Source: Fidelibacterota bacterium (GTDB taxonomy: Bacteria; Fidelibacterota; Marinisomatia; Marinisomatales; JACNKV01). Taken from it: a DNA stretch of 64,000 nt. Both the position numbers and the translations under genes were made by a program. The notes beneath the pieces were generated by a model. That model saw only the letters and a list, made by a program, of their open reading frames with translations, was not told the DNA's origin and searched no databases. Below, piece by piece: positions 6,951-40,419 of this stretch. The stretch spans positions 16,080-80,079 of the forward strand of contig JACNKV010000035.1 of the NCBI GenBank assembly GCA_014381855.1. Direction: 5' to 3'. The stretch's first letter is position 1. Each line of letters begins with the position of its first letter.

Positions 6951-6978
6951 CAGTTTTCGTCCAACCATATTGGAAATT

Positions 6979-7071
6979 GGGAATGATTGCGAGGCTGGTG
7001 CCCGCCGCGGTCTTCAAAACCGTTGTCCCCGGTATTCCCGGGGAGCTGGGTTCGATTCCCAGGCGTTCCCG
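6979..7071 (+). tRNA. selC: tRNA-Sec (anticodon UCA)
   Basis: Hand fold. Acceptor GGGAATGA pairs with GCGTTCCC (7 pairs plus 1 mismatch). Anticodon loop CTTCAAA at 7012-7018 carries TCA at 7014-7016. Long variable arm CCCCGG/CCGGGG spans 7027-7043. T arm is CTGGG-TTCGATT-CCCAG, with discriminator G at 7071. CCA is not encoded. Confidence 0.8.
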
Positions 7072-7206
7072 CATAGTCCTGCAACCGACCGAAGTGGAGG
7101 GCGGGCAGGTAGCCCAAATTGACCTTTTCGGAGTGGACTCACCAATGTTTTATCAGTAATTCAACCGGATACACCGCCTGCCGACTCTCTTATGTCCGAG
7201 GTGGGC

Positions 7207-11897: not shown

Positions 11898-11926
11898 GAT
11901 ATGTATCTCCGTTAGTGTCTAAATTT

Positions 11927-11948
11927 AGTAACTCATAACAGAGTTAAT
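11927..11948. promoter_or_regulatory. candidate operator, copy A of the palindrome GTAACTC-N6-GAGTTAC
   Basis: AGTAACTCATAACAGAGTTAAT lies in the 60-bp divergent gap between the GH13 lipoprotein (-) and the pullulanase (+). Read on the minus strand it is ATTAACTC-TGTTAT-GAGTTACT followed by AAATTTA, 29 nt before the ATG at 11897. Confidence 0.55.
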
Positions 11949-11957
11949 AAGGAAAAT

Positions 11958-13979: not shown

Positions 13980-13981
13980 GC

Positions 13982-17044: not shown

Positions 17045-17047
17045 TTT

Positions 17048-18859: not shown

Positions 18860-18914
18860 GATATTTCCTTTTTATTAAGTGTTAGTGTGTTAAAATGTTC
18901 ATGTGTGAAGTGTT

Positions 18915-22043: not shown

Positions 22044-22067
22044 AAGGTGATACAGTTCAAATGTTGA

Positions 22068-25255: not shown

Positions 25256-25286
25256 TTGAAAAATGCTTTCTAATAAAGAAGGTTAA

Positions 25287-25487
25287 TTATTCTGTTTTAT
25301 TTAATAGTGAAATAAAATCTAATTCGAGAGTTTGGATTTTACCATCTACATCCTCACGATATAACGTCAATTTAGTGTCAGGATTTTCTGCAACTGTCCA
25401 TTCGATTTCATTTAAAATGACAGAATCGCCAACCGCAATGGATTTGATTTCTGGTTTTGTTCCTGTGTCCAAGTTTATTATCTTCAT
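25287..25487 (-). CDS. small acidic hypothetical protein (66 aa from the ATG; the ORF track gives 72 aa from a TTG)
   Basis: The ATG at 25487 is preceded by an AGGAG RBS. The gene lies between the TrmB-like regulator and malQ on the same strand. I recognise no family. Confidence 0.5.
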   Translation of the reverse strand: MKIINLDTGTKPEIKSIAVGDSVILNEIEWTVAENPDTKLTLYREDVDGKIQTLELDFISLLNKTE

Positions 25488-25501
25488 GAGAGTGCTCCTA
25501 T

Positions 25502-26311
25502 TCAAATGTCTGCCAATAAACTGTCTAAACGAATATCCGGTCTCCGCATAATTTTTTTCACAATCGGATTCGGGTCAAAATCTAACCTTTGTCCGGCTAG
25601 GGTGATGTCAAGGATGATATGATTTGTAGCAATTTCAGTGATTGCTTTATTTTTTGTAAATATCGTTCTGCTGTCATTATGTTCAACCGTGCTACCCATT
25701 ATCGTCGTGGTTTGGTCGGCAACTAAAATAATTTTTGGATTCCATACTTTTAAAAGATCGACTTCATCTAAACTATAACTGACGGTTGTCCCAATATCTT
25801 CTTTAAGTTTGCAGAAAGAAAATAGCGTAATATCAACATCTCTATTCACAGCATCTTTTAATTCTCTTCCCAACGTAGTAACTTCTTGTCGCCATGCGCT
25901 TAGGATAATTTTACCTTGAGCATGATTAATAATTTCTTTCGCTTTCATGATTAGGTTACGATACCCGTGTAGGTGCCAAAAATCGAAGGCTTCTTCACTG
26001 GTGTTTAAATGGTCAAAAGCCTCGGTAATTTGTTGTACACGGTCTATATGTAAATTATTCATGTGTTCAATCATTGAAGAAGGCGATAGAGCGATATATT
26101 TTTTTGGATTTTCTCCCACAGAATTTATCAAACCTAAGGCCGTTAAGCGATTCAGTACGGAGTAAATAGCCGATCGTGGAACCCCGGAATATGTGCTGAT
26201 TTCATATCCGGTTGCCGGATTATTTTTCAGTAAAGCCAAATATGCCTTACCGGCATTGGAGGGAAGTCCAAATTCCGCAAGTAAATCAATAATTGTTTTT
26301 TCAGTATTCAT
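25502..26311 (-). CDS. TrmB-family sugar-responsive transcriptional regulator
   Basis: N-terminal winged HTH LLAEFGLPSNAGKAYLALLKNNPATGYEISTYSGVPRSAIYSVLNRLTALGLI, followed by a C-terminal TrmB-type sensing domain of appropriate length. It heads the minus-strand malQ-glgP operon. Confidence 0.82.
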   Translation of the reverse strand: MNTEKTIIDLLAEFGLPSNAGKAYLALLKNNPATGYEISTYSGVPRSAIYSVLNRLTALGLINSVGENPKKYIALSPSSMIEHMNNLHIDRVQQITEAFDHLNTSEEAFDFWHLHGYRNLIMKAKEIINHAQGKIILSAWRQEVTTLGRELKDAVNRDVDITLFSFCKLKEDIGTTVSYSLDEVDLLKVWNPKIILVADQTTTIMGSTVEHNDSRTIFTKNKAITEIATNHIILDITLAGQRLDFDPNPIVKKIMRRPDIRLDSLLADI

Positions 26312-26345
26312 AATTTTGTGTGCGTAGTTAATAATTATGTAAAAT

Positions 26346-26360
26346 ATTCATTTGATGAAT
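26346..26360. promoter_or_regulatory. 15-bp perfect palindrome ATTCATTTGATGAAT in the divergent regulatory region
   Basis: ATTCAT-TTG-ATGAAT read directly from the sequence, 35 nt upstream of the TrmB-like start on the minus strand. Function unknown. Confidence 0.3.
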
Positions 26361-26386
26361 TGCAATATTTACTCTAATATCCCAAC

Positions 26387-26408
26387 CGTAACTCACAACA
26401 GAGTTACT
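26387..26408. promoter_or_regulatory. candidate operator, copy B of the palindrome GTAACTC-N6-GAGTTAC
   Basis: CGTAACTC-ACAACA-GAGTTACT followed by AAATTTA, 25 nt before the ATG at 26434. It lies in the gap between the TrmB-like gene (-) and the GH13/receptor operon (+). Confidence 0.6.
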
Positions 26409-26433
26409 AAATTTAATAGAATTTGCCAATTGG

Positions 26434-28299
26434 ATGAAACAAATTAAATTAATAATTAAAGTCCTGCTATTAATCGTAGTTATTGAATCAAACCTCTTCG
26501 GTAACGTACTTCCCGATTGGGCGACGGATGCTGTGTGGTATCAGATATTTCCTGAGAGGTTTAATAATGGAGATCACGCAAACGATCCAACGTTAGCAAG
26601 TACCGTAGGAACATGGCCTTGGCAACATTCTGAGACGTGGAACGTATCACCGTGGACATCTGATTGGTACACCTTTCAGCAATGGGAGGTAGAAAATGGG
26701 AAAGATTTTCGGTACCAATTCCAGCTCCGGCGATACGGAGGTGATTTACAGGGGATCATTGAAAAATTGGATTATCTCCAAGAGTTAGGTGTCAATGCGA
26801 TTTATTTAAATCCGGTATTTGATTCGCCTTCATCTCATAAATACGGAGCGGCAACCTATCATCATATTGATCGACATTTTGGCCCGGACCCTGAAGGTGA
26901 TACCAACATTATTCAATCAGAAAGTCCAAATGACCCATCAACCTGGAAATGGACTTCAGCTGATAAATTATTTCTGCAGCTCGTCGAAGAGGTGCATCGC
27001 CGGGAAATGCATATCATTATAGATGGTGTATTTAATCATGCAGGATTAACATTTTGGGCATTTCAAGATGTCATAGAGAATCGGGAAAAAAGTTCGTACT
27101 ATCATTGGTACTCCATTGATGGAAATGGAATGGAAGACCATTCACATTTGAATGATTATAGAGACTTGCCATCTCAATTTAATCCGGATGGATATCCTCC
27201 TTTACGATATAAAGGGTACGTAGAAGATCTTCCTGCTTTTCGTCAGAACGAAGACGGTCCGGTTAAACCTGTTCGTGAGCACTTTAAGGAAATTGTTCGT
27301 CGTTGGATGGATCCGAACAATGATGGAGATACTTCTGATGGTATTGATGGATGGCGTTTAGATGTCGCCGAACGAATACAAATGTCGTTTTGGGATGAAT
27401 TTTGCGGCTGGGTGAAAGTGATAAACCCGAATGCATACATTACCGGGGAAGTCTGGTGGGAAGACTGGTGGAATAACAAACAATTTAATGCGTCTCCTTG
27501 GCTGAAAGACGGTCGTTTTGATGCCGTGATGAATTATCGATTTGGTGATGCAATGTTCAAGTATTTTATTGACCGGAAAAACCAGATTACTCCATTTGAA
27601 CTGGATATATTGCTTCAACAGGTCAGGGATGAATATCCCCCAAATACGGCTTACGTCTTGCAAAATTGTCTTGGAAGCCATGACATGGAAAGACTTGCCT
27701 CAGCGGTTGTAAATCCAGACAGATTGATAGACCATGCAAACAATACATGGTGGAATAAGGAATTTGACATCCGAAAGCCAAACTCCAAGCAGCAACAGAT
27801 TCAAAAGACAATCATTCTGTTTCAGTTTTCGTATTTGGGAGCACCCTATATCTATTATGGAGATGAAGTAGGAATGTGGGGAGCAGATGACCCGGATTGT
27901 CGCAAACCCATGGTGTGGTCTGAATTTTCTTATGAAAATGAAACCGCACATCCTTGCGACTATTTGGCATGTATTGAAACTAGGCCTGAAGATCGTGTGA
28001 TGGTTGACAAAGATTTATGGAAATATTATCATGATTTGATTGACCTTCGCCATAAACATCCATCCTTGAGACGAGGGAATTACAAGACAGTTTATACAAA
28101 TAGTGAAGGTCTCTTCGTCTTTCAGAGACAGCAGGATAATGAAATAATTATATGCGCATTTAATGGCTCAAACATTCAACAAACAATCCCAAATATTGTT
28201 TTTGAGGGCAAATTTGAAAATTGGTCCATGATATTTGGGGATGATTTTAATAAACAACTTCAAGCAAAATCAGGAAAACTATTTAAAAAGAAATTATGA
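26434..28299 (+). CDS. secreted GH13 enzyme (neopullulanase/cyclomaltodextrinase-like)
   Basis: Signal peptide present. AVWYQIFPERFNNGD, GGDLQGIIEKLDYLQELGVNAIYLNPVF, IIDGVFNHAG, GWRLDVAERI, TGEVWWED and LGSHDMER motifs. Confidence 0.9.
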   Translation: MKQIKLIIKVLLLIVVIESNLFGNVLPDWATDAVWYQIFPERFNNGDHANDPTLASTVGTWPWQHSETWNVSPWTSDWYTFQQWEVENGKDFRYQFQLRRYGGDLQGIIEKLDYLQELGVNAIYLNPVFDSPSSHKYGAATYHHIDRHFGPDPEGDTNIIQSESPNDPSTWKWTSADKLFLQLVEEVHRREMHIIIDGVFNHAGLTFWAFQDVIENREKSSYYHWYSIDGNGMEDHSHLNDYRDLPSQFNPDGYPPLRYKGYVEDLPAFRQNEDGPVKPVREHFKEIVRRWMDPNNDGDTSDGIDGWRLDVAERIQMSFWDEFCGWVKVINPNAYITGEVWWEDWWNNKQFNASPWLKDGRFDAVMNYRFGDAMFKYFIDRKNQITPFELDILLQQVRDEYPPNTAYVLQNCLGSHDMERLASAVVNPDRLIDHANNTWWNKEFDIRKPNSKQQQIQKTIILFQFSYLGAPYIYYGDEVGMWGADDPDCRKPMVWSEFSYENETAHPCDYLACIETRPEDRVMVDKDLWKYYHDLIDLRHKHPSLRRGNYKTVYTNSEGLFVFQRQQDNEIIICAFNGSNIQQTIPNIVFEGKFENWSMIFGDDFNKQLQAKSGKLFKKKL

Positions 28300-31200
28300 A
28301 GAATATAACGAAACTTATTTTAATGTTATCCATTATGTTGATTTCTAGCATATATGCAGGAACAACAGGAAAAATTTCCGGAACGGTAAAAGACAAAAAA
28401 ACAGGTGAATTCTTGGTTGGGTGTAATATAATGATTGATGGAACCAGTTTGGGAGCAGCAACTGATATCCATGGTAATTATTATATCTTAAATGTCCCTC
28501 CGGGGAAATATACAGTTCGTTCAATGATGATTGGATTTACTACGGTACGAATGACCGAAGTTGATGTTGCAGTAGATTTGACAACACGCATTAATTTTTC
28601 AATGAGTATGGAAGCCATTGAAGGAGAAGAGGTTGTGGTTGTGGCGAAAAGGCAAACCGTTCGGTTGGATCAGACATCCATGGCTTCGATAATGGATGCA
28701 AAAACATTAGAAAATCTTCCTGTGGCAGAAGTAATCGATGCAATTAGTCTCCAAGCCGGAATTGTACGGGACGGAGGTGGTTTACACGTCCGGGGAGGTA
28801 GAAGCGGTGAAGTCTCATTTTGGGTGGACGGTATCTCAACAACAGATTCTTACGATGGAAGTAGTGTCGGAGAAGAGATTCAAAATAGTTCTATACAAGA
28901 GCTTCAGGTTATCAGTGGAACTTTTAATGCGGAATATGGAAATGCAATGTCCGGCATTGTCAACATTGTTACAAAAGATGGGCAGGATCATTTAGAAGGT
29001 GGCTTGGAAATATATGGGGGTGGGTTTCATACGTTAAAATCAGATATATACACGATCTCGTCACCTTTTTCGATTTGGAAATCTTATGAAGACTTAAATG
29101 GAGATGGTCAATGGGATAGCCCTGAATGGTTTAATGATTTGAACGGAAATCTACAATGGGATTATAATGAACCTTATGATGATGCTAATGAGAATGGGAT
29201 ATTTGATGCAGGTGAACCCCTTAATAATGATTTAGGAACGGATGGTCTTGCCGGTGATCCAATGGATAATGGTTCAATGATTCCTTCATATTTTAGCAAT
29301 AATAACGGGCAAAAGAACGAACCCAGTTTAGGTGAAGGAGACGGACAACCTCAGTGGGGAGAACATCGTTTTTCGTTAGATAATGATGGGTTTGTGGATA
29401 AATTAAATGTAGTGCTGAATCCGTTTCAAATAAAAAACATCAATGCCCATTTGAGTGGGCCGGTTCCTTTTCTAAATGATTGGGTTACGTTTTACACAAA
29501 TATTCGTTACTTTAATACAACAAATAAGTACTATGGTAAACGACTATTCCAATCAAATGGTATGATGTTTGGAGATCAAAAGATTGTACCATTAGCACCG
29601 TTCTCAAAATTAACCGCTCAATTTAAATTTACTATAAAACCAACCCCAAAAATGAAGTTTGCTTACAGCTCTTTCAGCGCAGAAAAACAATATAAAAATT
29701 ATGATGCTGACTACAAATATATTCCGGATGGTTTGATGAATCGATATGAAAAAGATTTGTCTCATATCCTTACTTTCACGCATAGTATCTCATCAAAAAC
29801 CTTTTATGAATTAAAATTTATTGATTTTTCATCTGCTTACTGGGAACATCTTTACAAAGATGTCAACAACGTACCGTTTGAATCACAGATTATGGATAAT
29901 TTGTCTTGGCAAGCTGATTCAATTCAGATATACAATGGAGTAGAATGGGAAACTATTCCACAATATTATGAGGTGGGTACCTACCAAACTCAGGACTCAA
30001 CTTGGCATTACATAGTTGTAGATCTTGATGATTCAGAAGGCTATGTTGATCCGGTTATTATGAACCGACCGGCTTGGTCATTTGCGTCAGGAGGAACTCA
30101 AGGAGGTCGTTACGAACGAGAAACAAACTATCGTATGTTAAAATTTGATATTTCCAGTCAAATCAATTCTGTTCATCAAGTAAAAACCGGTTTTGCTTTC
30201 AAACGATATGACCTTTGGGCAAATGATAAACACGTAGAATATCTGATGGAAGGAAGTTACGGATTTACAGCGGAAGGAGATACGATTGGTTACAACCCTA
30301 TTTCAGGATCAAAAATCTTTCCTTATACACCAACAATTTATCCAACGTATACATCAGCACACAGCTATTTTCGTACAAATCCAATTGAGTTTTCTGCCTA
30401 TGTTCAGGATAAATTAGAGCTTGAGGATTTGATAGTAAATTTTGGTCTGCGATTTGATTATTTTGATCCGGATTGGGTTGTTCCCACAGATGACCGATTC
30501 CCGGGGAACCGTAAGTATTATTTAGCAGAGACCGCCAATGATACAGTTGTATTTTATCAATATGATTACCCGGAGCTTCATTCAGGTGTCGTTTTAATTG
30601 ATTCGTTAACGGCAGAAGGTGCCGTGAAAGCACAAAATCTACTAACCTCAGGAATGAATGAAGATTCGTTATGGACAGCCATGCGTGAGGATTATCAATG
30701 GAAGAACGGATATAAACCTGCTTGCAAATCATACCAACTTAGTCCTAGAATAGGATTGTCATACCCTGTTTCTGATAAAGGAGCAATTCATGTATCTTAT
30801 GGCTATTTTTTCCAGATTCCTAATTTCTCATATTTGTATTCAAACCCGGAATTTGAAATAGGGGAATCCAATTTTGCAGGAATTCTTGGGAATGCATCGC
30901 TAAAACCAGAGCGAACAGTGATGTATGAAGTTGGGTTTAAACAAGAAATAGCCATGTTGACATCTTTTGATCTTACTCTTTTCTACAGAGATACAAGAGA
31001 CTGGGTTGGAATGAGTGCTCCAATTCGTAAATATCCTGTAGGAACGTATTTTAAATATGAGAATAAAGACTATGCAAATACCCGTGGATATACTATTGCA
31101 ATTAATCGAGCATTTTATAATGGCTTAGGAGCCTCATTAGATTATTCTTGGATGGTTGCGGAAGGGACATACTCTAACCCGGACGATGCCTATCATAGCG

Positions 31201-31688
31201 CACAATCTGACCAAGAACCTTTACAGAGTTTAATTCCATTGGATTGGGATCAAACCCATACTCTAAATGGATCAATTACTTATGGAAAAAGAAATTGGTC
31301 TGTCTCAATGATTGGAAAATTATGGAGCGGCACTCCATATACACCGGAATTTAAAGTAGGTTCAGTCTCCGGTTCGAGTGCCTTTGCCGGGTTCTCAGAG
31401 AATAGTGATAGAATTCCAAATTATTATGAATTGGATTTTCGTTCTTCATATCGTTTAAATCTATTTGGCTTACATACAACACTGTTTTGTAACATATATA
31501 ATTTGTTGGATATTCAAAATGAACGTACAGTTTGGGGAGATACCGGCAGAGGAACCTATACACTTACCGCAAAAGATACACCAGACGCTACAACGGATCG
31601 TATTGGGCACATAGATGAGCACCTATTAAAACCTGATTGGTTTTCTGATCCACGTAAAATTAATGTAGGCATCCATGTCAAATTCTAG
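28296..31688 (+). CDS. TonB-dependent receptor (SusC-like architecture) with an Asp-rich insertion
   Basis: Signal peptide and carboxypeptidase-regulatory-like N-domain (GKISGTVKDKKTGEFLVGCNIMIDGTSLGAATDIHGNYYILNVPPGKYTV). Plug region LHVRGGRSGEVSFWVDGI. Long barrel ending GIHVKF. Its start overlaps the GH13 stop (ATGA). Confidence 0.88.
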   Translation: MKNITKLILMLSIMLISSIYAGTTGKISGTVKDKKTGEFLVGCNIMIDGTSLGAATDIHGNYYILNVPPGKYTVRSMMIGFTTVRMTEVDVAVDLTTRINFSMSMEAIEGEEVVVVAKRQTVRLDQTSMASIMDAKTLENLPVAEVIDAISLQAGIVRDGGGLHVRGGRSGEVSFWVDGISTTDSYDGSSVGEEIQNSSIQELQVISGTFNAEYGNAMSGIVNIVTKDGQDHLEGGLEIYGGGFHTLKSDIYTISSPFSIWKSYEDLNGDGQWDSPEWFNDLNGNLQWDYNEPYDDANENGIFDAGEPLNNDLGTDGLAGDPMDNGSMIPSYFSNNNGQKNEPSLGEGDGQPQWGEHRFSLDNDGFVDKLNVVLNPFQIKNINAHLSGPVPFLNDWVTFYTNIRYFNTTNKYYGKRLFQSNGMMFGDQKIVPLAPFSKLTAQFKFTIKPTPKMKFAYSSFSAEKQYKNYDADYKYIPDGLMNRYEKDLSHILTFTHSISSKTFYELKFIDFSSAYWEHLYKDVNNVPFESQIMDNLSWQADSIQIYNGVEWETIPQYYEVGTYQTQDSTWHYIVVDLDDSEGYVDPVIMNRPAWSFASGGTQGGRYERETNYRMLKFDISSQINSVHQVKTGFAFKRYDLWANDKHVEYLMEGSYGFTAEGDTIGYNPISGSKIFPYTPTIYPTYTSAHSYFRTNPIEFSAYVQDKLELEDLIVNFGLRFDYFDPDWVVPTDDRFPGNRKYYLAETANDTVVFYQYDYPELHSGVVLIDSLTAEGAVKAQNLLTSGMNEDSLWTAMREDYQWKNGYKPACKSYQLSPRIGLSYPVSDKGAIHVSYGYFFQIPNFSYLYSNPEFEIGESNFAGILGNASLKPERTVMYEVGFKQEIAMLTSFDLTLFYRDTRDWVGMSAPIRKYPVGTYFKYENKDYANTRGYTIAINRAFYNGLGASLDYSWMVAEGTYSNPDDAYHSAQSDQEPLQSLIPLDWDQTHTLNGSITYGKRNWSVSMIGKLWSGTPYTPEFKVGSVSGSSAFAGFSENSDRIPNYYELDFRSSYRLNLFGLHTTLFCNIYNLLDIQNERTVWGDTGRGTYTLTAKDTPDATTDRIGHIDEHLLKPDWFSDPRKINVGIHVKF

Positions 31689-34600
31689 AAATAAGTTGGG
31701 AAACATTATGAAAATAAACTCGTCATTTAATCATATACTTTTTATCGGGATTATGATTGTTAATACATCTCTAATGGCCGTCAATCCGCATGGTACAACG
31801 TTAGCAAGAGGAAAAAATGTACACTCCGGGAATAAGGTGAGAACAACTTTTTACAATTATGGTTTATTAGGGCGATGGATGGATGAGCCGGATGATATAG
31901 GAGGTGAATGGCCAATTAATTCTACTCATGAATATATTGGAGACGTTGGAATATTGGTAGGATCTGAAATTATGGATCAAAATGATGTACTACGTCACAG
32001 TGTCGTTACTACTTATAGTCCCCGCGGAAGTGAAATGAATTTAGATGATCACTGGGGCTGGGAACCACTCATGGGGTATTTCAATGATGATTCCAACTTG
32101 GTGGCGATGAGTCACATGGGTCCTCCGGTAGATCCCTCAAATCCAAGGCATCCGAATACTTGGCCAAATCAATGGCCGGACAAGCTTACCGATGCACTAG
32201 ATCCAGGTTGGTCCGAAAGTTGGAATGGCTATTTTGGAAAAAATCAAAAAAATGCGGAACAGGAAAGTTACTTTATCATGGATGATGCCAATGATGAGGA
32301 ATTTAGTTTTTTCCCGGATACTACAGATATGGAACGAAAAGGACTTGGTTTGAATGCAACAGTCCGAGGATTACAATGGAATCATATCATGGCAGAGGAC
32401 GTGCTTTTTTGGCTTTATGATATAAAAAATATTGGACATAAAGATCATCATAAGATGATTTTTGGAGCTATTGTAGGCACGATAACAGGTGGGGATGGAG
32501 ACAGCCAGGATGATTATGCGGATTTTGATAAAAATGACGATATTGCGTATTCCTATGACCATGGGACAAATCTTGACACTGGACTAGGTGGTGTTGGTGC
32601 ACAGGGTTGGTCTCCGGTAGGTTTAGCGGGTTATGCCTTTCTTGAAAGTCCGGGGAATTCGATAGACGGGATTGACAACGATGGCGATGGTAGTGATGGC
32701 TCAGGAGAGATTATCACAGAAAGTTTATTTGACCCGGTGATATTTTCTGTCGGTGATACAATTGTAGTAATAGATTATTATAATGGTTATGAGAGAACCA
32801 TTACAACAATGCCTGCAAACGGAATTGAAATCGTTCAAAACGGAAATATTTATACATTTGTTCCGGGGATTCCCTATGAAGAAATTGAACGAAATTTGAT
32901 TGATGATAACCTAAATGGTATTATTGACGAAAACAACGGCTATTCCATAGAGGTTGCTCCTGGTTATTTTGAAGATATATATTTGAATGTTGGGCAAAAA
33001 TACATTGATTATTTAACTAATGAAGGAATAGATAATCTGCTGATTGATGAGTCACGGAGTGATGGTATTGATAATGACGGTGACTGGGATTTTGAAAAGG
33101 ACGATGTAGGTCTAGACGGTGCTCCCGGAAGCGGAGACACATTTTATGGCGAAGGTGATGGACAGCCGACATCCGGCTTTGAGTTGATGGGTGATGAATG
33201 GGTGGATACAGGATTCCCGGGTGAACCAAATATTGATAAAACAGATATTGATGAGTCTGATCAGATAGGACTATCAAGTTTTTACTATTTTGCTTTTGGT
33301 CAGTTTTCAGATATGGGATGTGATGATTGTCTATGGAATAAAATGGCCCCGGGATATTTTAATAAGTCTGTGCAAAATGTTGATGCTGACTTTCTTTTCG
33401 GATCCGGGTATTTCCCGTTACCGGTGGGCGAAACAGAACGCTTTTCTATAGCCATGTTATTTGGTGATAATCTCCCTGATCTAATCAGAAACAAACAAAC
33501 CGTACAGACAATCTATAATCAGAATTATAATTTTGCAAAAGCACCAGATTTACCGACAGTTTGGGCTTTTGAAGGAGACGGATATATCACAATTTATTGG
33601 GATGACCGTTCTGAAAATTCATATGATAGACTGTCCGGCTATGATTTTGAAGGATACAAAATATATAAAGCAACCGATACCGAATTTACGGATTCCGGGA
33701 GCATTACGGATGCCTTTGGATCGCATAAATTTAATGTGGCGGAAAAGCAGTTCGACTTAGTCAATGAATATGAAGGGTTTTTTCCGATTGATATAGATGG
33801 GATTCTTTACGATCTAGGAGATAATTCAGGACTTGTTCATGCATGGACAGATACAAATGTGTTAAATGGCCATCGTTACTATTATGCTGTTACTGCATAC
33901 GACCATGGAAATTTAGATAAAGAGATACTCCCGGCTGAAACATCCAAATTTGTTACTATTGATAAAAGCGGTAAAATTCAAACTGCTCAAAATGTTATTT
34001 CAATAGTTCCTGAAGCCCACGCCGCAGGATATGTTATCCCTCCTGCAAATGAGGAAGTATATCCCTTGCACAAACCCAGAGGAACTGGTAGTATTGTTTT
34101 GAATAATATTGATCCCTCCCAAATACCTGAAAACCACAACTATCAAATTTATTTTAAAGATTCAAGATTGAATGGATTGGATGATGATGGCGATTGGGTT
34201 CAAGTGGATGATAGTTACGCGAATAATCGATGGGATTCAACGGAAGTCTATTTTGATTTTGGGCTCGATGGTTTACCGAATACGGAAGACGAAGGTGAGG
34301 GAAATGGTGAAATTGATTGGTTGGATTATGGTGTTGATGGAACGCGAAATCAAGATGAACCGGGATTTAATCCGTGGAATAACCCGGACCCAAGTCATGA
34401 TAATTACGTAGACTCCGGGGCAAATGAAAATTGCTCTGACGGTTGGGATAATGACGGAGATGGAGAAATTGACGAATTAGAAAATGGTGAGTGCGCTGAT
34501 TGGGGCACAGAAAATGATGGAATATATCAACTTGCAGAACTTGGTGAACCTATTATTGACGGAAATGCACTTTTTGACAAGGATGTTGGTAGCGATGGTT

Positions 34601-35907
34601 GCAGAGATGAATTTGAGGATGGTTTTGGGGGATGCCTAAGTGAACAAAATCCTTCTTGGTCCGAAGGAATGGATCCAAACTCTGATAACTACAATATCCT
34701 TACAAATCCAAGTGGGACTGAAGGAAATCAACAACCTGATCTGGGAGAACCGGATGTAGACTTAAATGATTTGGAAGAGATGGTCCCGATTACTTCACAC
34801 TTTATGGTTGTTGATGTTACAGAGTCGTCTAAATATGATACGGTCGTAACATGGACGCAGGCATTGGAAGATGATAAAACCATCTTTAATGGTATGCAGT
34901 TGCTGTTCGATAATCATAGAATCATTCAAAAACAATCATCAAGATTTATACCAAAATATGATAAAGAATATTACGTCTTGGTTGACTCTTTTAGCTATGG
35001 TGGAATTGCGACCATCGGAGTGAAATATCCAAGGGATATGAAATTTATTTTTTCAGATTCTACGGAATTTCAAACGGAAGCACAAGAATTAATCAGAACA
35101 ACAGGAGATACAATAACTTTTGAAAGTATAAATGTGAATTATTCAATAGTGGATCCTTATGATGATTCTCCGATATCTTTTGCGGTGTTTGATCAGACTT
35201 GGGAATATACAATGCCTGATTCGGAATTATTTGTTGATCAACATGATTATATCTCAATTGAAGAACAGAAAATCGGTTATTATGATGCAGAAGGTTTTCA
35301 TGAACACCCAGACAGTACATTATACGATATTGTTACATTCGCTAAACCCGGTCATTTTTCCTTTGGAGATCGCATCATAATTTTGGAATCTATGGGTGGA
35401 ACAACTCTTGTGACTTGGGGAGTCAGCACTGATAGTGACGATTCTTCACCATATATTCACATTCCGGTAACAGGTGACACGTTAGATATCAGAGTTACCA
35501 AACCATTTAGTTCTGAAGATAAATTTGGTTTTGTATCAAATGCGCCATATTTGGACCAACAAAAAATGAAGCAGGAAATTCACAATGTCAAAGTTGTGCC
35601 GAACCCTTATATCGCTGGCGCAAGTTGGGAAGGGCAAAATCCTTACGCTACAGGGCGAGGTCCGCGGGCAATCCATTTTAATCATTTACCATCACAATGT
35701 AAAATTACAATATTTAATCTTGCCGGTGAATTGGTAGATGTTTTATTCCATGATACAGTGATCGAAGATGGCTCCGCAGAGTGGGATATGCTAACAAAAG
35801 AAAACCTATCAATTGCCTATGGAATTTATCTCTATTACATAGAGCCAATATCAGGAGGCCAAAATGATTTTGAACCTATACAGGGAAAGTTTGCGGTGAT
35901 AAAATGA
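31675..35907 (+). CDS. very large secreted protein of unknown function with Asp-rich Ca-binding-type repeats and a divergent T9SS-CTD-like C-terminus
   Basis: 1,410-aa uninterrupted ORF. The alternative ATG at 31708 gives the signal-like N-terminus MKINSSFNHILFIGIMIVNTSLMA. Repeated DxDxDG motifs (IDNDGDGSDG, GIDNDGDWD, GLDDDGDW, GWDNDGDGEID). C-terminus is VVPNPY..ITIFNLAGELV..GIYLYYIEP..KFAVIK. Confidence 0.8.
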   Translation: MSNSRNKLGNIMKINSSFNHILFIGIMIVNTSLMAVNPHGTTLARGKNVHSGNKVRTTFYNYGLLGRWMDEPDDIGGEWPINSTHEYIGDVGILVGSEIMDQNDVLRHSVVTTYSPRGSEMNLDDHWGWEPLMGYFNDDSNLVAMSHMGPPVDPSNPRHPNTWPNQWPDKLTDALDPGWSESWNGYFGKNQKNAEQESYFIMDDANDEEFSFFPDTTDMERKGLGLNATVRGLQWNHIMAEDVLFWLYDIKNIGHKDHHKMIFGAIVGTITGGDGDSQDDYADFDKNDDIAYSYDHGTNLDTGLGGVGAQGWSPVGLAGYAFLESPGNSIDGIDNDGDGSDGSGEIITESLFDPVIFSVGDTIVVIDYYNGYERTITTMPANGIEIVQNGNIYTFVPGIPYEEIERNLIDDNLNGIIDENNGYSIEVAPGYFEDIYLNVGQKYIDYLTNEGIDNLLIDESRSDGIDNDGDWDFEKDDVGLDGAPGSGDTFYGEGDGQPTSGFELMGDEWVDTGFPGEPNIDKTDIDESDQIGLSSFYYFAFGQFSDMGCDDCLWNKMAPGYFNKSVQNVDADFLFGSGYFPLPVGETERFSIAMLFGDNLPDLIRNKQTVQTIYNQNYNFAKAPDLPTVWAFEGDGYITIYWDDRSENSYDRLSGYDFEGYKIYKATDTEFTDSGSITDAFGSHKFNVAEKQFDLVNEYEGFFPIDIDGILYDLGDNSGLVHAWTDTNVLNGHRYYYAVTAYDHGNLDKEILPAETSKFVTIDKSGKIQTAQNVISIVPEAHAAGYVIPPANEEVYPLHKPRGTGSIVLNNIDPSQIPENHNYQIYFKDSRLNGLDDDGDWVQVDDSYANNRWDSTEVYFDFGLDGLPNTEDEGEGNGEIDWLDYGVDGTRNQDEPGFNPWNNPDPSHDNYVDSGANENCSDGWDNDGDGEIDELENGECADWGTENDGIYQLAELGEPIIDGNALFDKDVGSDGCRDEFEDGFGGCLSEQNPSWSEGMDPNSDNYNILTNPSGTEGNQQPDLGEPDVDLNDLEEMVPITSHFMVVDVTESSKYDTVVTWTQALEDDKTIFNGMQLLFDNHRIIQKQSSRFIPKYDKEYYVLVDSFSYGGIATIGVKYPRDMKFIFSDSTEFQTEAQELIRTTGDTITFESINVNYSIVDPYDDSPISFAVFDQTWEYTMPDSELFVDQHDYISIEEQKIGYYDAEGFHEHPDSTLYDIVTFAKPGHFSFGDRIIILESMGGTTLVTWGVSTDSDDSSPYIHIPVTGDTLDIRVTKPFSSEDKFGFVSNAPYLDQQKMKQEIHNVKVVPNPYIAGASWEGQNPYATGRGPRAIHFNHLPSQCKITIFNLAGELVDVLFHDTVIEDGSAEWDMLTKENLSIAYGIYLYYIEPISGGQNDFEPIQGKFAVIK

Positions 35908-36950
35908 AGCATCCATCTATAAGACAAAAGAGACTGTTTCTTCCGATAATTTCAATGTTCATAGTTTTTGCGTGGACAAATCCTTTATTATCTCAATCAG
36001 TTTCTAAAGTAGGCACAACTGCCAGTCAGTTTTTGAAAATTGGCGTGAGTTCACGTCCACTATCCATGGGCGGAGCATTTACTGCCGTTGCAGATGATGT
36101 GTCTGCTTTGTACTGGAATCCCGCAGGGATTGCCGGACTTGATAAAGTGCAAGTGTTGTTCGATCATACTGAATGGTTTCAAGATATAGATTATGAATTT
36201 GTTGGCGGGTTAATTAATCTTGGGACATACGGATCAATCGGAGCAACGATTTCCTATCTTCATATGAAAGAAATGGACGTAACGACGACACATCAGCCGG
36301 AAGGCACAGGAGAATCTTTCGATGCCGGATGCTATTCAGCCACGTTTACTTATGGGAAAAGAATCACAGATCGGTTCTCACTTGGATTGACGACAAAATA
36401 TGTAAATGAATTCATCTATAACTCCAGTGCATCCGGTTTTGCGATGGATATTGGAACAAAGTATAATACGCGGGTTGAGGGCTTAGCTTTAGGAATGAGT
36501 ATATCCAATTTTGGGACTAAAATGCAGATGTCAGGGAGAGATTTAATTATCCAAACTGATTTGGACCCAACATTAGAATCAGACCCCGAGCATGTAAATG
36601 CTTATTTAGACACTGATGAGTTTGATCTCCCTCTCCTTTTTCGGTTTGGCATTGCATACAAATTTCAATTATTGCACCGTAATTTGAATATTACGTTAGC
36701 AGCAGATGCCAATCATCCAAATGATAATACTGAAAGTTTAAATATTGGGACAGAAATAAATATAGCAAACATGGTGTTTTTACGCGGTGGAATCCAACAT
36801 TTATTCCAACGAGACGCTGAAGAACAATTTGCATTAGGTGCTGGAATTAAAATCCACATGGGTGGTTTCATTATGGTTGTTGATTATGCTTATCATGAAT
36901 TTGGCAGATTAGGCTCACCCCAGAAAATCACTATTTCTCTTATCCAATAA
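35904..36950 (+). CDS. PorV/PorQ-family outer-membrane beta-barrel protein
   Basis: Signal peptide followed by TASQFLKIGVSSRPLSMGGAFTAVADDVSALYWNPAGIAG, which I recognise as the PorV/PorQ-type N-terminal signature. The remainder has an alternating beta-strand pattern. Its start overlaps the giant ORF stop (ATGA). Confidence 0.75.
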   Translation: MKHPSIRQKRLFLPIISMFIVFAWTNPLLSQSVSKVGTTASQFLKIGVSSRPLSMGGAFTAVADDVSALYWNPAGIAGLDKVQVLFDHTEWFQDIDYEFVGGLINLGTYGSIGATISYLHMKEMDVTTTHQPEGTGESFDAGCYSATFTYGKRITDRFSLGLTTKYVNEFIYNSSASGFAMDIGTKYNTRVEGLALGMSISNFGTKMQMSGRDLIIQTDLDPTLESDPEHVNAYLDTDEFDLPLLFRFGIAYKFQLLHRNLNITLAADANHPNDNTESLNIGTEINIANMVFLRGGIQHLFQRDAEEQFALGAGIKIHMGGFIMVVDYAYHEFGRLGSPQKITISLIQ

Positions 36951-37111: not shown

Positions 37112-40100
37112 ATGAAGAAAGCTATCATTTTAGCACTGACTCTTTCGTTATCATTCTTATTCGCAACAAATGTCACATTTCAATTAGACATGAGCAATGA
37201 GGATGTAAGTGTAGATGGTGTACACATAGCCGGTGGTATGCAGGGTTGGGATCCTGCAGCATCAGAGCTTACGGACGCCGATGCAGACGGGATCTATGAG
37301 ATCACGTTTGATTTGACAGCCGGAGACACAGTCCAGTATACATTTCTAAATGGAAATAGCTGGGGTGGTCAGGAAGATAACACAGGTTTAGCAGAATGTG
37401 GTGTAGACAATGGATGGGGTGCATACAATCGTGTTTATATTGTTGGTGAAGTAGATGAGACAGTAGGTCCGGTTTGTTTTTCAAGTTGTATTACCTGTGA
37501 TCAGGTTTATGTAACATTCCAAGTTGACATGCAGAATGAAGAAGTTTCAGCGGAGGGTGTTCACATTGCCGGTAGCATGCAGGGCTGGGATCCTAGTGCA
37601 TCCGCTATGACGGACGAAGATGCAGATGGTGTATATGAAGCCACATTTGCATTGACAACAGGTGAGACCGCTTACTACAAGTATGTAAATGGTAATGCAT
37701 GGGGTTCTGAGGAGATTGTTCCTTCAGACTGTGCAGATGGTGGAAACCGTTTTTATGTTGTTGGTGAGATGGATGAGACACTTCCAGTTGTATGTTTCAG
37801 CGGTTGTTCAACATGTGAGCCGCCGAACATTGTAACGGCTGTTGTGACTTTCCAGGCAGATATGACCAATTTTGTAGGGTTTGATCCTTCGGTACATACA
37901 TTAGAAGTCCGTGGCAGTTTTAATGGTTGGGGCGGCGGAGATGCATTGCAGGCAGATTTGGTTGATCCGAACCTATATGTTCTTGATGTTGAGATCACAG
38001 AGAATGTCGGCAATGAAGTCTTTTGGAAGTTCAAGGCCAATCCTGATGAAGACTGGAATAACACCGGTTGGGAGACAGGAGATAATAAGGTATTTGATTG
38101 GACAGGAGAGGCTATTATTCTTGAAGCTCTTCAGCCGGACATTTTACCGGCTGGAGCTCCACTTACGAATGATGTCACCTTTACGTTTGCAGTTCAGTGG
38201 GTAGATGGTGTGCTGAATGTCAATAGTGGTGAGCCTTTCGTACAGAAGCCTGAAGTGATTGTATTCAACGGTTCATACCTGAATGGTTGGTACACATGGG
38301 GTGATTGTATTGGTGATGGGTGCGAGACACCGGCTAGTACCGATATGCCACATTTAACGGATGACGATGGAGATAACATCTTTACCGGAACATTATCCTT
38401 ACCTGCGGGTCATGATAATTTATTCATGGCGAAGTTTGGTGGATGGTATTCCGGGATTGAAATTGATGCTCCGGGAACGAATGGTGCGATAGATAACGAA
38501 GCCGGGTTTGGTCAAGATCGTGTGATTTTGATCCCTGTAGATGCAACAGAGTTTGCATATGAAACTATCTTCGGTATCAATAACCCGGATAATGAATTTC
38601 CTGAGGATCCTGTAGGCGTCCTGGTCACATTTCAATTAGACATGAGCAATGAGGATGTAAGTGTAGATGGTGTACACATAGCCGGTGGTATGCAGGGTTG
38701 GGATCCTGCAGCATCAGAGCTTACGGACGCCGATGCAGACGGGATCTATGAGATCACGTTTGATTTGACAGCCGGAGACACAGTCCAGTATACATTTCTA
38801 AATGGAAATAGCTGGGGTGGTCAGGAAGATAACACAGGTTTAGCAGAATGTGGTGTAGACAATGGATGGGGTGCATACAATCGTGTTTATATTGTTGGTG
38901 AAGTAGATGAGACAGTAGGTCCGGTTTGTTTTTCAAGTTGTATTACCTGTGATCAGGTTTATGTAACATTCCAAGTTGACATGCAGAATGAAGAAGTTTC
39001 AGCGGAGGGTGTTCACATTGCCGGTAGCATGCAGGGCTGGGATCCTAGTGCATCCGCTATGACGGACGAAGATGCAGATGGTGTATATGAAGCCACATTT
39101 GCATTGACAACAGGTGAGACCGCTTACTACAAGTATGTAAATGGTAATGCATGGGGTTCTGAGGAGATTGTTCCTTCAGACTGTGCAGATGGTGGAAACC
39201 GTTTTTATGTTGTTGGTGAGATGGATGAGACACTTCCAGTTGTATGTTTCAGCGGTTGTTCAACATGTGAGCCGCCGAACATTGTAACGGCTGTTGTGAC
39301 TTTCCAGGCAGATATGACCAATTTTGTAGGGTTTGATCCTTCGGTACATACATTAGAAGTCCGTGGCAGTTTTAATGGTTGGGGCGGCGGAGATGCATTG
39401 CAGGCAGATTTGGTTGATCCGAACCTATATGTTCTTGATGTTGAGATCACAGAGAATGTCGGCAATGAAGTCTTTTGGAAGTTCAAGGCCAATCCTGATG
39501 AAGACTGGAATAACACCGGTTGGGAGACAGGAGATAATAAGGTATTTGATTGGACAGGAGAGGCTATTATTCTTGAAGCTCTTCAGCCGGACATTTTACC
39601 GGCTGGAGCTCCACTTACGAATGATGTCACCTTTACGTTTGCAGTTCAGTGGGTAGATGGTGTGCTGAATGTCAATAGTGGTGAGCCTTTCGTACAGAAG
39701 CCTGAAGTGATTGTATTCAACGGTTCATACCTGAATGGTTGGTACACATGGGGTGATTGTATTGGTGATGGGTGCGAGACACCGGCTAGTACCGATATGC
39801 CACATTTAACGGATGACGATGGAGATAACATCTTTACCGGAACATTATCCTTACCTGCGGGTCATGATAATTTATTCATGGCGAAGTTTGGTGGATGGTA
39901 TTCCGGGATTGAAATTGATGCTCCGGGAACGAATGGTGCGATAGATAACGAAGCCGGGTTTGGTCAAGATCGTGTGATTTTGATCCCTGTAGATGCAACA
40001 GAGTTTGCATATGAAACTATCTTCGGTATCAATAACCCGGATAATGAATTAAGTGTTGTCAATCTGGAAATGATTCCTGATGAGTTCGCACTTAAAGGAA

Positions 40101-40357
40101 ATTTTCCGAATCCGTTCAACCCTGAAACGAGTATCATGTTTGATCTGGATATCACGTCCAATGTAACGGTAAAGATTTACTCTCTCTTAGGAGAAGAAGT
40201 CATTACACTTTACAATGGACAAGCAGATCCTGGGGTGTATTCCATTAAATGGAATGCAACAAACTCCATGGGACGTGAAGTTCCTTCAGGTGTATATCTG
40301 TATAGTGTTATTTCAGATAAACGCATGCATACTGGTAAAATGTTATTGTTGAAATAA
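37112..40357 (+). CDS. multi-module (CBM-like) surface protein with T9SS CTD, containing an internal 484-codon tandem duplication
   Basis: AAGGAG RBS and signal peptide. Repeated modules of type VTFQxDM..GVHIAGxMQGWDP..TDxDADGxYE..Y.F.NGN.WG..CFSxCxTC, plus GSFNGWGGG-type modules. CTD runs FPNPFNPETSIMF..GVYLYSV..GKMLLLK. Confidence 0.85.
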   Translation: MKKAIILALTLSLSFLFATNVTFQLDMSNEDVSVDGVHIAGGMQGWDPAASELTDADADGIYEITFDLTAGDTVQYTFLNGNSWGGQEDNTGLAECGVDNGWGAYNRVYIVGEVDETVGPVCFSSCITCDQVYVTFQVDMQNEEVSAEGVHIAGSMQGWDPSASAMTDEDADGVYEATFALTTGETAYYKYVNGNAWGSEEIVPSDCADGGNRFYVVGEMDETLPVVCFSGCSTCEPPNIVTAVVTFQADMTNFVGFDPSVHTLEVRGSFNGWGGGDALQADLVDPNLYVLDVEITENVGNEVFWKFKANPDEDWNNTGWETGDNKVFDWTGEAIILEALQPDILPAGAPLTNDVTFTFAVQWVDGVLNVNSGEPFVQKPEVIVFNGSYLNGWYTWGDCIGDGCETPASTDMPHLTDDDGDNIFTGTLSLPAGHDNLFMAKFGGWYSGIEIDAPGTNGAIDNEAGFGQDRVILIPVDATEFAYETIFGINNPDNEFPEDPVGVLVTFQLDMSNEDVSVDGVHIAGGMQGWDPAASELTDADADGIYEITFDLTAGDTVQYTFLNGNSWGGQEDNTGLAECGVDNGWGAYNRVYIVGEVDETVGPVCFSSCITCDQVYVTFQVDMQNEEVSAEGVHIAGSMQGWDPSASAMTDEDADGVYEATFALTTGETAYYKYVNGNAWGSEEIVPSDCADGGNRFYVVGEMDETLPVVCFSGCSTCEPPNIVTAVVTFQADMTNFVGFDPSVHTLEVRGSFNGWGGGDALQADLVDPNLYVLDVEITENVGNEVFWKFKANPDEDWNNTGWETGDNKVFDWTGEAIILEALQPDILPAGAPLTNDVTFTFAVQWVDGVLNVNSGEPFVQKPEVIVFNGSYLNGWYTWGDCIGDGCETPASTDMPHLTDDDGDNIFTGTLSLPAGHDNLFMAKFGGWYSGIEIDAPGTNGAIDNEAGFGQDRVILIPVDATEFAYETIFGINNPDNELSVVNLEMIPDEFALKGNFPNPFNPETSIMFDLDITSNVTVKIYSLLGEEVITLYNGQADPGVYSIKWNATNSMGREVPSGVYLYSVISDKRMHTGKMLLLK
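37172..38598 (+). repeat. tandem direct repeat, copy 1 (1,427 bp)
   Basis: By-eye comparison shows it identical to 38624-40050. Four antisense ORF-track peptides recur with an exact 1,452-nt offset (for example 37302-37484 vs 38754-38936). Confidence 0.9.
38624..40050 (+). repeat. tandem direct repeat, copy 2 (1,427 bp)
   Basis: Period is 1,452 bp (484 codons, in frame). The copies are joined by the unique 25-bp linker 38599-38623. Identity stops at 37171/38623 on the left and 38599/40051 on the right. Confidence 0.9.
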
Positions 40358-40384
40358 ACACACTTTACTAAAGTAATGTTGTAC

Positions 40385-40419
40385 AAAGTGCCGCAGAATT
40401 CTGCGGCACTTTGTTTATT
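40385..40419 (+). terminator. rho-independent terminator
   Basis: AAAGTGCCGCAG-AATT-CTGCGGCACTTT is a perfect 12-bp stem followed by GTTTATT. It lies 28 nt after the stop of the CDS at 37112-40357. Confidence 0.85.

Follow-up and report, generated by a model that had tools for sequence, protein, structure and literature searches.

SusE and SusF of Bacteroides thetaiotaomicron are lipoproteins of the outer cell surface that consist of two or three tandem starch-binding beta-sandwich domains of the CBM-like type. Their genes lie next to those of a TonB-dependent transporter and of GH13 enzymes, and the proteins capture alpha-glucan multivalently through several binding sites. Repeats of a different kind are found in the surface proteins alpha C and Rib of group B streptococci and in Aap/SasG, Esp and Bap. 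These repeats are in frame, identical at the nucleotide level, homogenised by recombination and variable in copy number between strains; their units of 79-128 aa are present in many copies and serve immune evasion or biofilm spacing. Concerted evolution by RecA-dependent gene conversion is also known for tufA/tufB and for the rRNA operons, where it acts on dispersed whole genes.

The gene described here lies in a 64,000-nucleotide stretch of contig JACNKV010000035.1 from a Marinimicrobia metagenome-assembled genome; this whole stretch is called the window. The lineage of this contig is denoted W, its sister species R, and a group of more distant relatives the P0008 clade. The 1081-aa product resembles SusE and SusF, as far as can be seen from the sequence and a model, in having tandem starch-type CBM domains and a TonB receptor and GH13 enzymes as neighbours. 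It differs from them in lacking a lipobox cysteine and in carrying a T9SS type A sorting domain. It has eight modules, arranged as two near-identical four-module units, compared with two or three modules in SusE and SusF, and the place beside the receptor is taken by a 1410-aa protein without recognised domains, no SusD-family gene being recognised there.

Multi-CBM T9SS proteins of marine Flavobacteriales and Marinimicrobia (P0002-P0120) have the same CBM48/CBM20/X25-type modules followed by a C-terminal sorting domain. They are often named automatically as '1,4-alpha-glucan branching enzyme' or 'T9SS type A sorting domain-containing protein', and their number of modules varies widely. Most of them contain repeats of ~110 aa that have diverged individually, whereas the repeat in the window is a composite four-module block of 484 codons that is identical in DNA. 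The gene shares with the Gram-positive proteins the presence of in-frame, nucleotide-identical repeats in a surface protein, but its unit is 484 aa long, occurs twice and belongs to a putative nutrient-capture protein of a free-living marine bacterium. The likeness to tufA/tufB is that paralogues within a genome are closer than orthologues between species and that exact tracts are patchy, for example in L028. Here, however, the paralogues are adjacent halves of one reading frame only 25 bp apart, so that one unit is also frequently deleted. The homogenised two-unit gene is a known kind of phenomenon. A literature search gave no publications dealing specifically with this protein family or with alpha-glucan loci of Marinimicrobia.

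Architecture of the surface protein

The gene (37112..40357, plus strand) was delineated from its open reading frame and translation and from Pfam and NCBIfam matches, and encodes a putative T9SS-secreted alpha-glucan-binding surface protein of 1081 aa. The product is identical to NCBI entry MBC8215053.1, 'T9SS type A sorting domain-containing protein [Candidatus Marinimicrobia bacterium]'. It is composed of a predicted signal peptide, a 475-aa unit of four beta-sandwiches, the linker FPEDPVGVL, a second identical unit and the T9SS type A sorting domain, in this order. The signal peptide region MKKAIILALTLSLSFLFATN (37112..37171, plus strand) is predicted from the translation, in which the N terminus MKKAIILALTLSLSFLFA is seen to be hydrophobic. 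Residues 1-95 contain no cysteine. The region is therefore not a lipoprotein signal, and the protein is presumably anchored via its T9SS CTD in place of a lipid.

All further elements of the gene are on the plus strand. The first unit copy (37172..38598) was defined by the exact repeat, and its four beta-sandwich modules by module homology, AlphaFold and Foldseek. Module A occupies about 37172-37504 (unit aa 1-111) and module B about 37505-37837 (unit aa 112-222); modules C and D follow at about 37838-38170 and about 38171-38596. The identity is 58% between modules A and B and about 27-33% between these two and modules C and D, in line with an earlier observation, made from the sequence alone, that each unit contains older, diverged internal repeats. 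The linker (38599..38623), whose 25 bp encode FPEDPVGVL together with flanking bases, is unique in the window; its homology to linkers in relatives marks it as the putative ancestral duplication junction. The second copy of the unit (38624..40050) is identical to the first in this contig. It is followed by the C-terminal tail (40051..40357), which contains the sorting domain (aa 998-1077, about 40103-40342).

The same sequence-only reading had described the product as a T9SS surface protein with glycan-binding modules, and both parts of this description are supported by profile searches. The sorting domain scores 32.4 bits with the NCBIfam profile TIGR04183 over aa 998-1077 (cutoff 23). The tail also matches Pfam FlgD_ig (29.8 bits, cutoff 27), and Por_Secre_tail (PF18962) is under its cutoff of 27 with 21.6 bits. 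The modules are of the starch-binding type, since X25_BaPul_like (55.9 bits, cutoff 27), CBM_48 (49.0, cutoff 22.4) and CBM_20 (36.9, cutoff 23.3) exceed their gathering scores; these are scores of the whole protein, no individual domain stretch passing alone. Faint matches to PF26120 (CBM_1st_SusF) are also on record for the protein, and invariant Trp, Tyr and Gly columns are present in the alignment.

The AlphaFold model of the unit is all-beta and has a pLDDT of 83. Its fold, as modelled, is superposable on solved starch-binding CBMs: Foldseek matched CBM26 (6b15) with an E value of 1.2e-5, the CBM20 of STBD1 (8x8k) with an E value of 7e-5 (TM score on the target 0.71, rmsd 3.2) and many CBM20 domains of CGTases. 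The fold evidence is limited to these single-domain CBM20 and CBM26 matches. Multi-Ig pilins and adhesins, the top matches to the whole unit, were rejected as generic strings of beta-sandwiches (rmsd >20 Å, TM ~0.15). The CBM families and fold matches together make alpha-glucan binding the putative function of the protein.

The alpha-glucan locus

The two-unit gene sits in an alpha-glucan utilisation locus. A block of catabolic genes recognised by Pfam (9531..28299) comprises GH13 genes at 9531-11897 (minus strand) and 11958-13979 (plus), a GH13 gene with CBM53 and a T9SS CTD at 13982-17044 (minus), an SSF symporter at 17048-18859 (minus), a GH13 gene fused to HAD at 18915-22043 (minus), a phosphorylase at 22068-23744 (minus), a GH77 gene at 23741-25255 (minus) and a further GH13 gene at 26434-28299 (plus). 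It is followed by a TonB-dependent receptor (28296..31688, plus strand) with CarboxypepD_reg, Plug and barrel matches in Pfam, which is likely to be the importer of the locus and is syntenic in R and in the P0008 locus. The locus thus contains five GH13 genes, one GH77, one phosphorylase, a TonB receptor and a PorV/PorQ paralogue. In the P0008 locus, a GH13-CTD amylase adjoins the orthologue of the two-unit gene.

No SusD-family match was obtained beside the receptor when the neighbouring genes were searched with Pfam and NCBIfam. The 1410-aa protein (31675..35907, plus strand), situated between the receptor and the PorV-like gene, has no Pfam family and gave only a sub-threshold repeat match in NCBIfam. 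Its position is conserved: the counterpart has 1410 aa in R and 1322 aa in the P0008 locus. Directly upstream of the two-unit gene lies a gene for an outer-membrane beta-barrel of the PorV/PorQ family (35904..36950, plus strand), recognised by NF033709 (198 bits, cutoff 90) and by Pfam UPF0164 and PorV, and syntenic in R and in the P0008 lineage. This gene, together with other CTD proteins in the window, points to T9SS components in the genome. An inverted-repeat search found a perfect palindrome of 16+16 nt (I3, 40383..40414), 26 nt past the stop codon of the two-unit gene, which by its sequence is probably a transcription terminator hairpin.

Geometry of the repeat

Direct comparison within the window confirmed the segment 37172-38598 to recur at 38624-40050, as had been reported, with a period of 1452 nt and no mismatch over 1427 bp. 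The count of 0 in 1427 agrees with an earlier comparison by eye, although in this contig it is not an independent measurement of two copies. The exact run is not extendable by a single base at either end, and outside it the identity at an offset of 1452 falls to the background of 18-48 matches per 100. The two copies are separated by a spacer of 25 bp, TCCTGAGGATCCTGTAGGCGTCCTG (38599-38623). The period corresponds to 484 codons and is in frame inside the single open reading frame 37112-40357. An exact repeat of this length is far beyond chance. The antisense open reading frames 37753-38064 and 39205-39516, whose peptides had been cited as independent support, do repeat at the 1452-nt offset, but this is a trivial consequence of the repeat itself.

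Zero divergence and the assembly graph

The meaning of the zero divergence is clarified by two sibling SPAdes scaffolds, L013 and L014, in which one copy is reduced to a gap of 100 N with exactly 55 bp of the unit left at either edge. These scaffolds run from the upstream sequence through the opening 55 bp of the unit to the 100 N and resume with its final 55 bp, followed by the linker, a unit and the tail. As the gap begins exactly 55 bp inside the unit, the unit must have been one edge of a de Bruijn graph (k=55) that was written out twice. The zero divergence was therefore produced by construction and not measured, and the sharp contrast that had been drawn with the diverged internal repeats is not to be taken at face value. 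In SPAdes, isolated differences between the copies of such a single-edge repeat would be collapsed as bubbles. The graph does resolve the outermost 55 bp at both ends of each copy, and these are truly identical in W. Elsewhere in the unit, every SNP between assemblies is present in both copies; such pairing is equally expected from collapse by the assembler and is not independent evidence for conversion within W.

The strongest competing explanation retains the two-unit layout and its homogenisation but takes the units to be nearly, not exactly, identical, with up to roughly 1-1.5% isolated differences hidden by the assembler. It is a serious possibility, although it falls clearly short of an even chance. 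In its favour are the single k=55 edge and the pattern of differences in R. The units of R differ at 6 of 1427 positions, all in the first 97 nt (unit positions 1, 6, 10, 11, 42 and 97), and the remaining 1330 nt are identical. Each of these six differences has its predecessor or unique flank within fewer than 55 nt, and these are precisely the differences that a graph with k=55 is able to tie to unique sequence. Moreover, L002 and L016, whose flanks are identical over 13 kb, have different bases at unit position 281, and do so in each copy. Sibling assemblies vary at 7 sites in the 1427 bp of the unit and at 20 sites in 12.4 kb of flank, so that the density of variable sites is about 3 times higher in the unit. 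This excess is modest, however, and might be no more than ordinary variation between strains; the graph-resolved outer 55 bp, being truly identical, speak against hidden differences.

The same loop in the graph would fit any copy number of two or more, and the 100-N gaps of L013 and L014 are placeholders, so the array might have three or more units of which the assembler took the loop once. This is improbable, because the relatives with diverged, and hence resolvable, units all have exactly two. A hypothetical three-unit protein (1565 aa) also had no exact match in a collection of 15 billion proteins, a result of little weight since assemblers rarely emit three units.

Sister species and distant relatives

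Concerted evolution of an old pair of units, the preferred reading, is supported by comparison with relatives. R has the same synteny as the window and is 85-87.5% identical to its flanks in DNA. It carries the same two-unit gene, and its linker is identical to that of W at 19 of 25 nt. The units of W and R are 83.8% identical (231 differences in 1427 nt), with a dS of 0.92 and a dN/dS of 0.07. The paralogous units are thus far more alike than the orthologous ones and are under purifying selection. In the unit tree, units group by genome in both the W/R and the P0008 clades. Judged from these comparisons, the pattern in W and R is that of concerted evolution by gene conversion or unequal crossover. 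Ongoing gene conversion, one of four explanations offered at the outset, is the one favoured by the comparative data. Import of foreign DNA as the source of faster divergence in the unit was rejected, the W-R identity of the unit (83.8%) matching that of the flanks.

In more distant relatives, a linker related to that of W joins units that are 52-87% identical, and identities between units of the same protein grade continuously through 100, 99.6, 87, 65-79 and 52-57%. The P0008 clade has an 18-nt linker, TTCCCTGAGAATACACTC, whose DNA is homologous to that of the W/R linker; this homology is based on about 18 nt only. The 19 of 25 nt shared by W and R and the aligned P0008 linker indicate that the duplication is old and of single origin, with a shared junction. 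An origin of the linker as a diverged copy of the pre-unit linker in R (EASEPTGTQ compared with EFPEDPVGTL, about 15 of 30 nt) was considered and found too weak. Apparent conversion tracts are visible in diverged copies: L028 has an exact tract of 568 bp inside units that are otherwise 78% identical, and exact runs of 89 bp and 74 bp occur in L027 and in L025/L017, respectively. Single-unit proteins (P0031, P0050, P0051, P0101 and L019 of the S lineage) are scattered through the tree, and an ancient duplication accordingly needs several secondary losses.

The junction is found in at least 10 contigs of the W lineage, with coverage from 12x to 1485x, and in at least 19 R contigs from other projects; the W two-unit protein or its two-unit variants come from several assemblies and projects. 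Between identical flanks, assemblies of R show two units in some contigs and a single unit in many others, which points to true variation of copy number in R. The single unit came from JGI 3300013119, SRR8062351 and SAMN10231891, and the pair from SAMN11854489 and SAMN10231892/912/913. The earlier proposal of a copy-number-variable array finds moderate support here, in R only. For W, the hypothetical one-unit protein (597 aa) was absent from an exact look-up in the 15-billion-protein collection and from the 90% cluster, which makes one-unit assemblies of W less likely. Mixed V/A two-unit proteins likewise had no exact match in that collection. A search of metagenome_contigs gave 0 matches to the junction and 5 to a unit-to-tail control, none of them homologous; the collection lacks these lineages and the null is uninformative.

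An assembly artefact had also been proposed, and this holds for the zero divergence, a single edge having been traversed twice, but not for the duplication itself. Were the duplication false, the genome would have one unit, and the path through the linker would stem from a chimeric sequence, a paralogue or another strain in the sample. Copy counting is indeed beyond short-read de Bruijn assembly, two sibling assemblies have a gap in place of a copy, and R has one unit in many contigs. Nevertheless, the linker has unit sequence on both sides, so that every molecule with the linker must contain two or more units, whole or partial. Its recurrence in the W and R contigs, the private left-edge variants of the R copy after the linker, which are reproduced in 5 assemblies, the same layout in distant relatives with diverged and unambiguously assembled units, and the failure to find a W-type one-unit protein in the cluster or the look-up make a false duplication very improbable.

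A very recent tandem duplication in the W lineage, as suggested by the 0 mismatches and by the existence of single-unit relatives (P0031, P0050, L019), can be dismissed almost entirely, because a clean tandem copy would match over the full period of 1452 and not over 1427 with 25 unique nt, and because the junction is shared with R, whose units are at dS 0.92 from those of W, and with much more distant relatives, in which a related linker joins clearly diverged P0008-clade units.

Origin and maintenance of the two units

The joint explanation, which we consider probable, is that the gene encodes a two-unit alpha-glucan capture protein that arose by an ancient duplication and is homogenised by recombination, and that the absolute zero divergence of the contig is not a measurement. 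The cell-surface protein would capture alpha-glucan (starch, glycogen or maltodextrin) for a Marinimicrobia bacterium, being exported by the type IX secretion system and acting beside the TonB-dependent receptor and the GH13 enzymes. An ancient in-frame duplication would have doubled the four-domain 475-aa binding unit, and the 25-bp linker junction would have been inherited across species. Recombination between the units, presumably by gene conversion or cycles of unequal crossover, would keep them nearly or fully identical. Their high identity would in turn ease further recombination, which may sometimes delete one unit and give rise to one-unit variants. With two units the protein would have twice as many glucan-binding modules and extend twice as far from the cell surface, with a presumed benefit in avidity.

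It is conceivable, though on balance unlikely, that the two-unit state is also selected, being maintained by recombination and variable in copy number, such that one-, two- and perhaps three-unit alleles on otherwise identical Marinimicrobia genomes tune the valency of alpha-glucan capture. If so, homogenisation would have continued past a species split with a dS of about 0.9 because matched units are selected for.

Recency does not follow from a perfect long repeat when the contig was assembled from short metagenome reads. The decisive clues were the N-gaps of sibling assemblies, placed exactly k bases into the repeat, and the sister species. The gene offers a clean case of intragenic concerted evolution in an uncultivated marine phylum, with a dS of ~0 for the paralogous units as against 0.92 for the two species. 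It also represents a SusE/F-like putative glucan-binding protein that appears to be delivered by T9SS and not lipid-anchored, in a starch-type locus without a recognisable SusD. If the polymorphism between one and two units is real, it would be a simple way for marine heterotrophs to vary the strength of substrate capture.

Organization of the two-unit gene

Direct comparison showed that positions 37172-38598 and 38624-40050 are identical over 1427 bp, with no mismatches at an offset of 1452. The next base in either direction already breaks the exact run, and around the repeat identity at this offset is at background level only. Both copies and the unique 25-nt linker between them (38599-38623) lie inside a single 1081-aa open reading frame (37112-40357), confirming the perfect in-frame tandem duplication claimed by the sequence-only reading. 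The encoded protein, identical to MBC8215053.1 (NCBI, Candidatus Marinimicrobia MAG), has a hydrophobic N-terminus of 20 aa, as read from the translation, followed by a 475-aa unit (VTFQLDM...NNPDNE), the linker FPEDPVGVL, a second unit of the same sequence and a C-terminal tail of 102 aa. Each unit is composed of four modules. Modules A and B are 58% identical, so the older, diverged internal repeats noticed earlier are real; C and D are more distantly related to these (27-33%). The repeated antisense reading frames are also present, as a trivial by-product of the repeated DNA. A perfect palindrome of 16+16 nt (ACAAAGTGCCGCAGAA/TTCTGCGGCACTTTGT; 40383-40414), situated 26 nt past the stop codon, is probably a bidirectional terminator hairpin.

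The gene product and its locus

In the tail, TIGR04183 (32.4 bits; cutoff 23) marks a T9SS type A sorting domain, in agreement with the earlier assignment to T9SS surface proteins, and Pfam FlgD_ig matches above its gathering score. The units match X25_BaPul_like, CBM_48 and CBM_20 in Pfam. The AlphaFold model of a single unit (pLDDT 83) is a chain of four beta-sandwiches. The specific hits that Foldseek gave for individual domains are to starch-binding modules, namely CBM26 of Amy13K (6b15), CBM20 of STBD1 with bound maltotetraose (8x8k; TM 0.71) and CBM20 domains of CGTases.

The gene neighborhood is an alpha-glucan utilization locus. Its dense catabolic block (9531-28299) holds five GH13 genes and one gene each for GH77, glucan phosphorylase and an SSF (sodium:solute) symporter. 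One of the GH13 proteins contains CBM53 and is secreted through its T9SS CTD, and another is fused to a HAD phosphatase domain. Adjoining the glucan genes, a protein encoded at 7207-9534 (- strand) combines CotH kinase, lamin-tail and T9SS sorting domains. A TonB-dependent receptor gene is followed by the gene of a 1410-aa protein lacking a recognized domain (31675-35907, + strand) and by that of a PorV/PorQ-family outer-membrane barrel (35904-36950, + strand; 198 bits, cutoff 90), directly upstream of the two-unit gene. The barrel is syntenic across species and might serve this T9SS cargo as a locus-specific shuttle or anchor. The 1322-1410-aa protein lies between the receptor and PorV-like genes in three diverged Marinimicrobia lineages, where it holds the slot expected for a SusD-like partner; no Pfam or NCBIfam family was found for it (window 31675-35907, L003 564-4796, L017 2927-6895). 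On L017, which carries the locus of the more distant orthologue P0008, a GH13 amylase with a CTD directly follows the two-unit gene.

From the CBM-family matches, the predicted folds, the T9SS domain and the alpha-glucan locus, the two-unit protein is best read as a putative SusE/F-like surface glucan-binding protein, which would differ from SusE/F in being anchored via T9SS, not lipid. The glycan-binding role proposed previously thus gains support, with binding itself predicted from homology and modeling.

Zero mismatches and the assembly graph

The window lineage has been assembled many times with SPAdes (NODE_..._cov contig names), whose default largest k is 55. Two sibling assemblies (L013, L014) run from upstream sequence 55 bp into the unit, break off in 100 N, and resume 55 bp before the end of the unit, continuing into the linker, a unit and the tail. 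The gap edges thus coincide with k, showing that the unit is a single de Bruijn graph edge. In the window contig this edge was traversed twice: the way the contig was built forces identity on the interior of about 1317 bp, and independent resolution is confined to the outermost 55 bp of the copies. SNPs that separate sibling assemblies inside the unit always come in pairs, one per copy: P0001 has V114A together with V598A, P0126 has three paired substitutions, P0124 has one, and L015 has five paired DNA sites. The zero mismatches are therefore no measurement of true copy identity.

In the sister species (P0122/P0124, contig L003) the two units differ at six sites only (unit positions 1, 6, 10, 11, 42 and 97), the other 1330 nt being identical, and the pattern is shared by five independent assemblies. 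Each difference has either its predecessor or unique flank within less than 55 nt, and the last two are separated by 54 nt. These are exactly the differences that a k=55 graph can keep tied to unique sequence; an isolated one deeper in the unit would form a bubble and be collapsed by the assembler.

There is an appreciable, though minor, chance that the true copies differ at a few sites masked in this way. In favor are the single edge, the paired SNPs, two assemblies (L002 and L016) whose 13-kb flanks are identical although unit position 281 differs between them in both copies, and a density of variable sites among assemblies that is about threefold higher inside the unit than in flanking DNA. 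The divergence cannot be much more than 1-2%, because more divergent copies would assemble separately, as in P0008. With low probability, the real array could also hold more than two units. The duplication itself is not false: unit sequence flanks the linker on both sides, the linker occurs in at least 10 contigs of the window lineage, whose coverage spans 12x to 1485x, as well as in 19 or more sister-species contigs from other projects, the sister-species copy after the linker has private left-edge variants, and relatives with diverged units, unambiguous to assemble, have the same layout. The suspected assembly artefact thus applies to the perfection of the repeat, a single edge written twice, and not to the repeat, whose linker recurs across assemblies.

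Five SNPs within about 100 bp (42432, 42478, 42498, 42529, 42533) lie inside a GDSL/TPR gene (41810-43771). Here the window differs from five of the six siblings compared (L001, L002, L014, L015, L016) and not from L013; the remaining 12-kb flanks show scattered differences only. A small import by recombination could explain this cluster, as could a hypervariable patch.

Age and concerted evolution of the units

The sister species is the second lineage in the 90%-identity cluster of the window protein. Its 1233-aa protein joins two units through the linker FPEDPVGTL and has an additional 152-aa domain at the N-terminus; the gene order is the same. Flanks 85-87.5% identical to those of the window place the two lineages in different species. 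Between the two, the units share 83.8% identity at the DNA level and 89% at the protein level; the dN/dS of 0.07 indicates purifying selection. The 25-nt linkers match at 19 of 25 positions, a likeness that cannot stem from two separate origins and dates the duplication before the species split. This refutes the very recent duplication considered earlier, as the sister-species units differ from those of the window at a dS of 0.92. The units are near-identical inside each species despite this distance between species, and have evolved together within each since the split.

The module ahead of unit 1 is swapped among close species (window 37112-37171, L003 6001-6516, L019 5404-6000): absent in the window lineage, it is the 152-aa domain in the sister species and a lamin-tail domain in the L019 lineage and P0051. 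A three-module paralogue (L023) occurs in the same MAG as L019.

Two-unit proteins are common further out in Marinimicrobia, with within-protein unit identities of 87% (P0008), 65-79% (P0013 to P0030) and 52-57% (P0028, P0034). The units cluster by genome in the clade of the window, the sister species and P0008, and mostly by position in the other clade. The P0008-clade linker TTCCCTGAGAATACACTC (FPENTL) is alignable to the linker of the two close species, TTTCCTGARGAT[CCTGTAGGC]ACATTA. On L028, from the other clade, the units are 78% identical overall, yet their last 568 bp (approximately 5429-5982 and 6875-7443), covering module D, are exact to the unit boundary; outside this tract they are 60-80% identical. 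It stems either from recent conversion or from one more edge collapsed during assembly. In L025/L017 and L027, shorter stretches of 74-89 bp match exactly between the units. The shared linker, the within-genome likeness and the exact tracts together carry the hallmark of repeated gene conversion or unequal crossover between the units, so that ongoing conversion, among the explanations first offered, is supported. Homogenization ranges from patchy to complete across lineages. The single-unit relatives (P0031, P0050, P0051, P0101, L019) are most simply explained as deletions through the same recombination.

Variation in copy number

A one-unit form in the sister species (P0123, 749 aa, equal to P0122 minus 484 aa) is present in 18 contigs. 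Across 12 kb of flanks, L007 with one unit and L003 with two are identical, and in SUTE22-1, a single pipeline and project, one sample has one unit and three others have two. Logan contigs are built without repeat resolution; the Logan contig SRR8062351 (3238 bp) passes straight through the one-unit gene, where a linker branch at normal depth should have broken it. These data moderately support the existence of real one-unit and two-unit alleles in the sister species. For the window lineage, neither the 90%-identity cluster nor exact look-up gave a one-unit form, and the copy-number-variable array suggested earlier is plausible overall.

RecA-type recombination between the direct repeats would homogenize the units and now and then delete one. 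High unit identity would favor more exchange, and lineages that drifted to about 80% unit identity (P0008) may largely have escaped it. DNA-identical in-frame surface-protein repeats maintained by concerted evolution are already well known; what is new, though not surprising, is the setting, a Marinimicrobia T9SS glucan-binding protein whose repeated unit spans 484 codons and four CBMs. Two units would double the number of binding modules and may thereby raise avidity for polymeric glucan.
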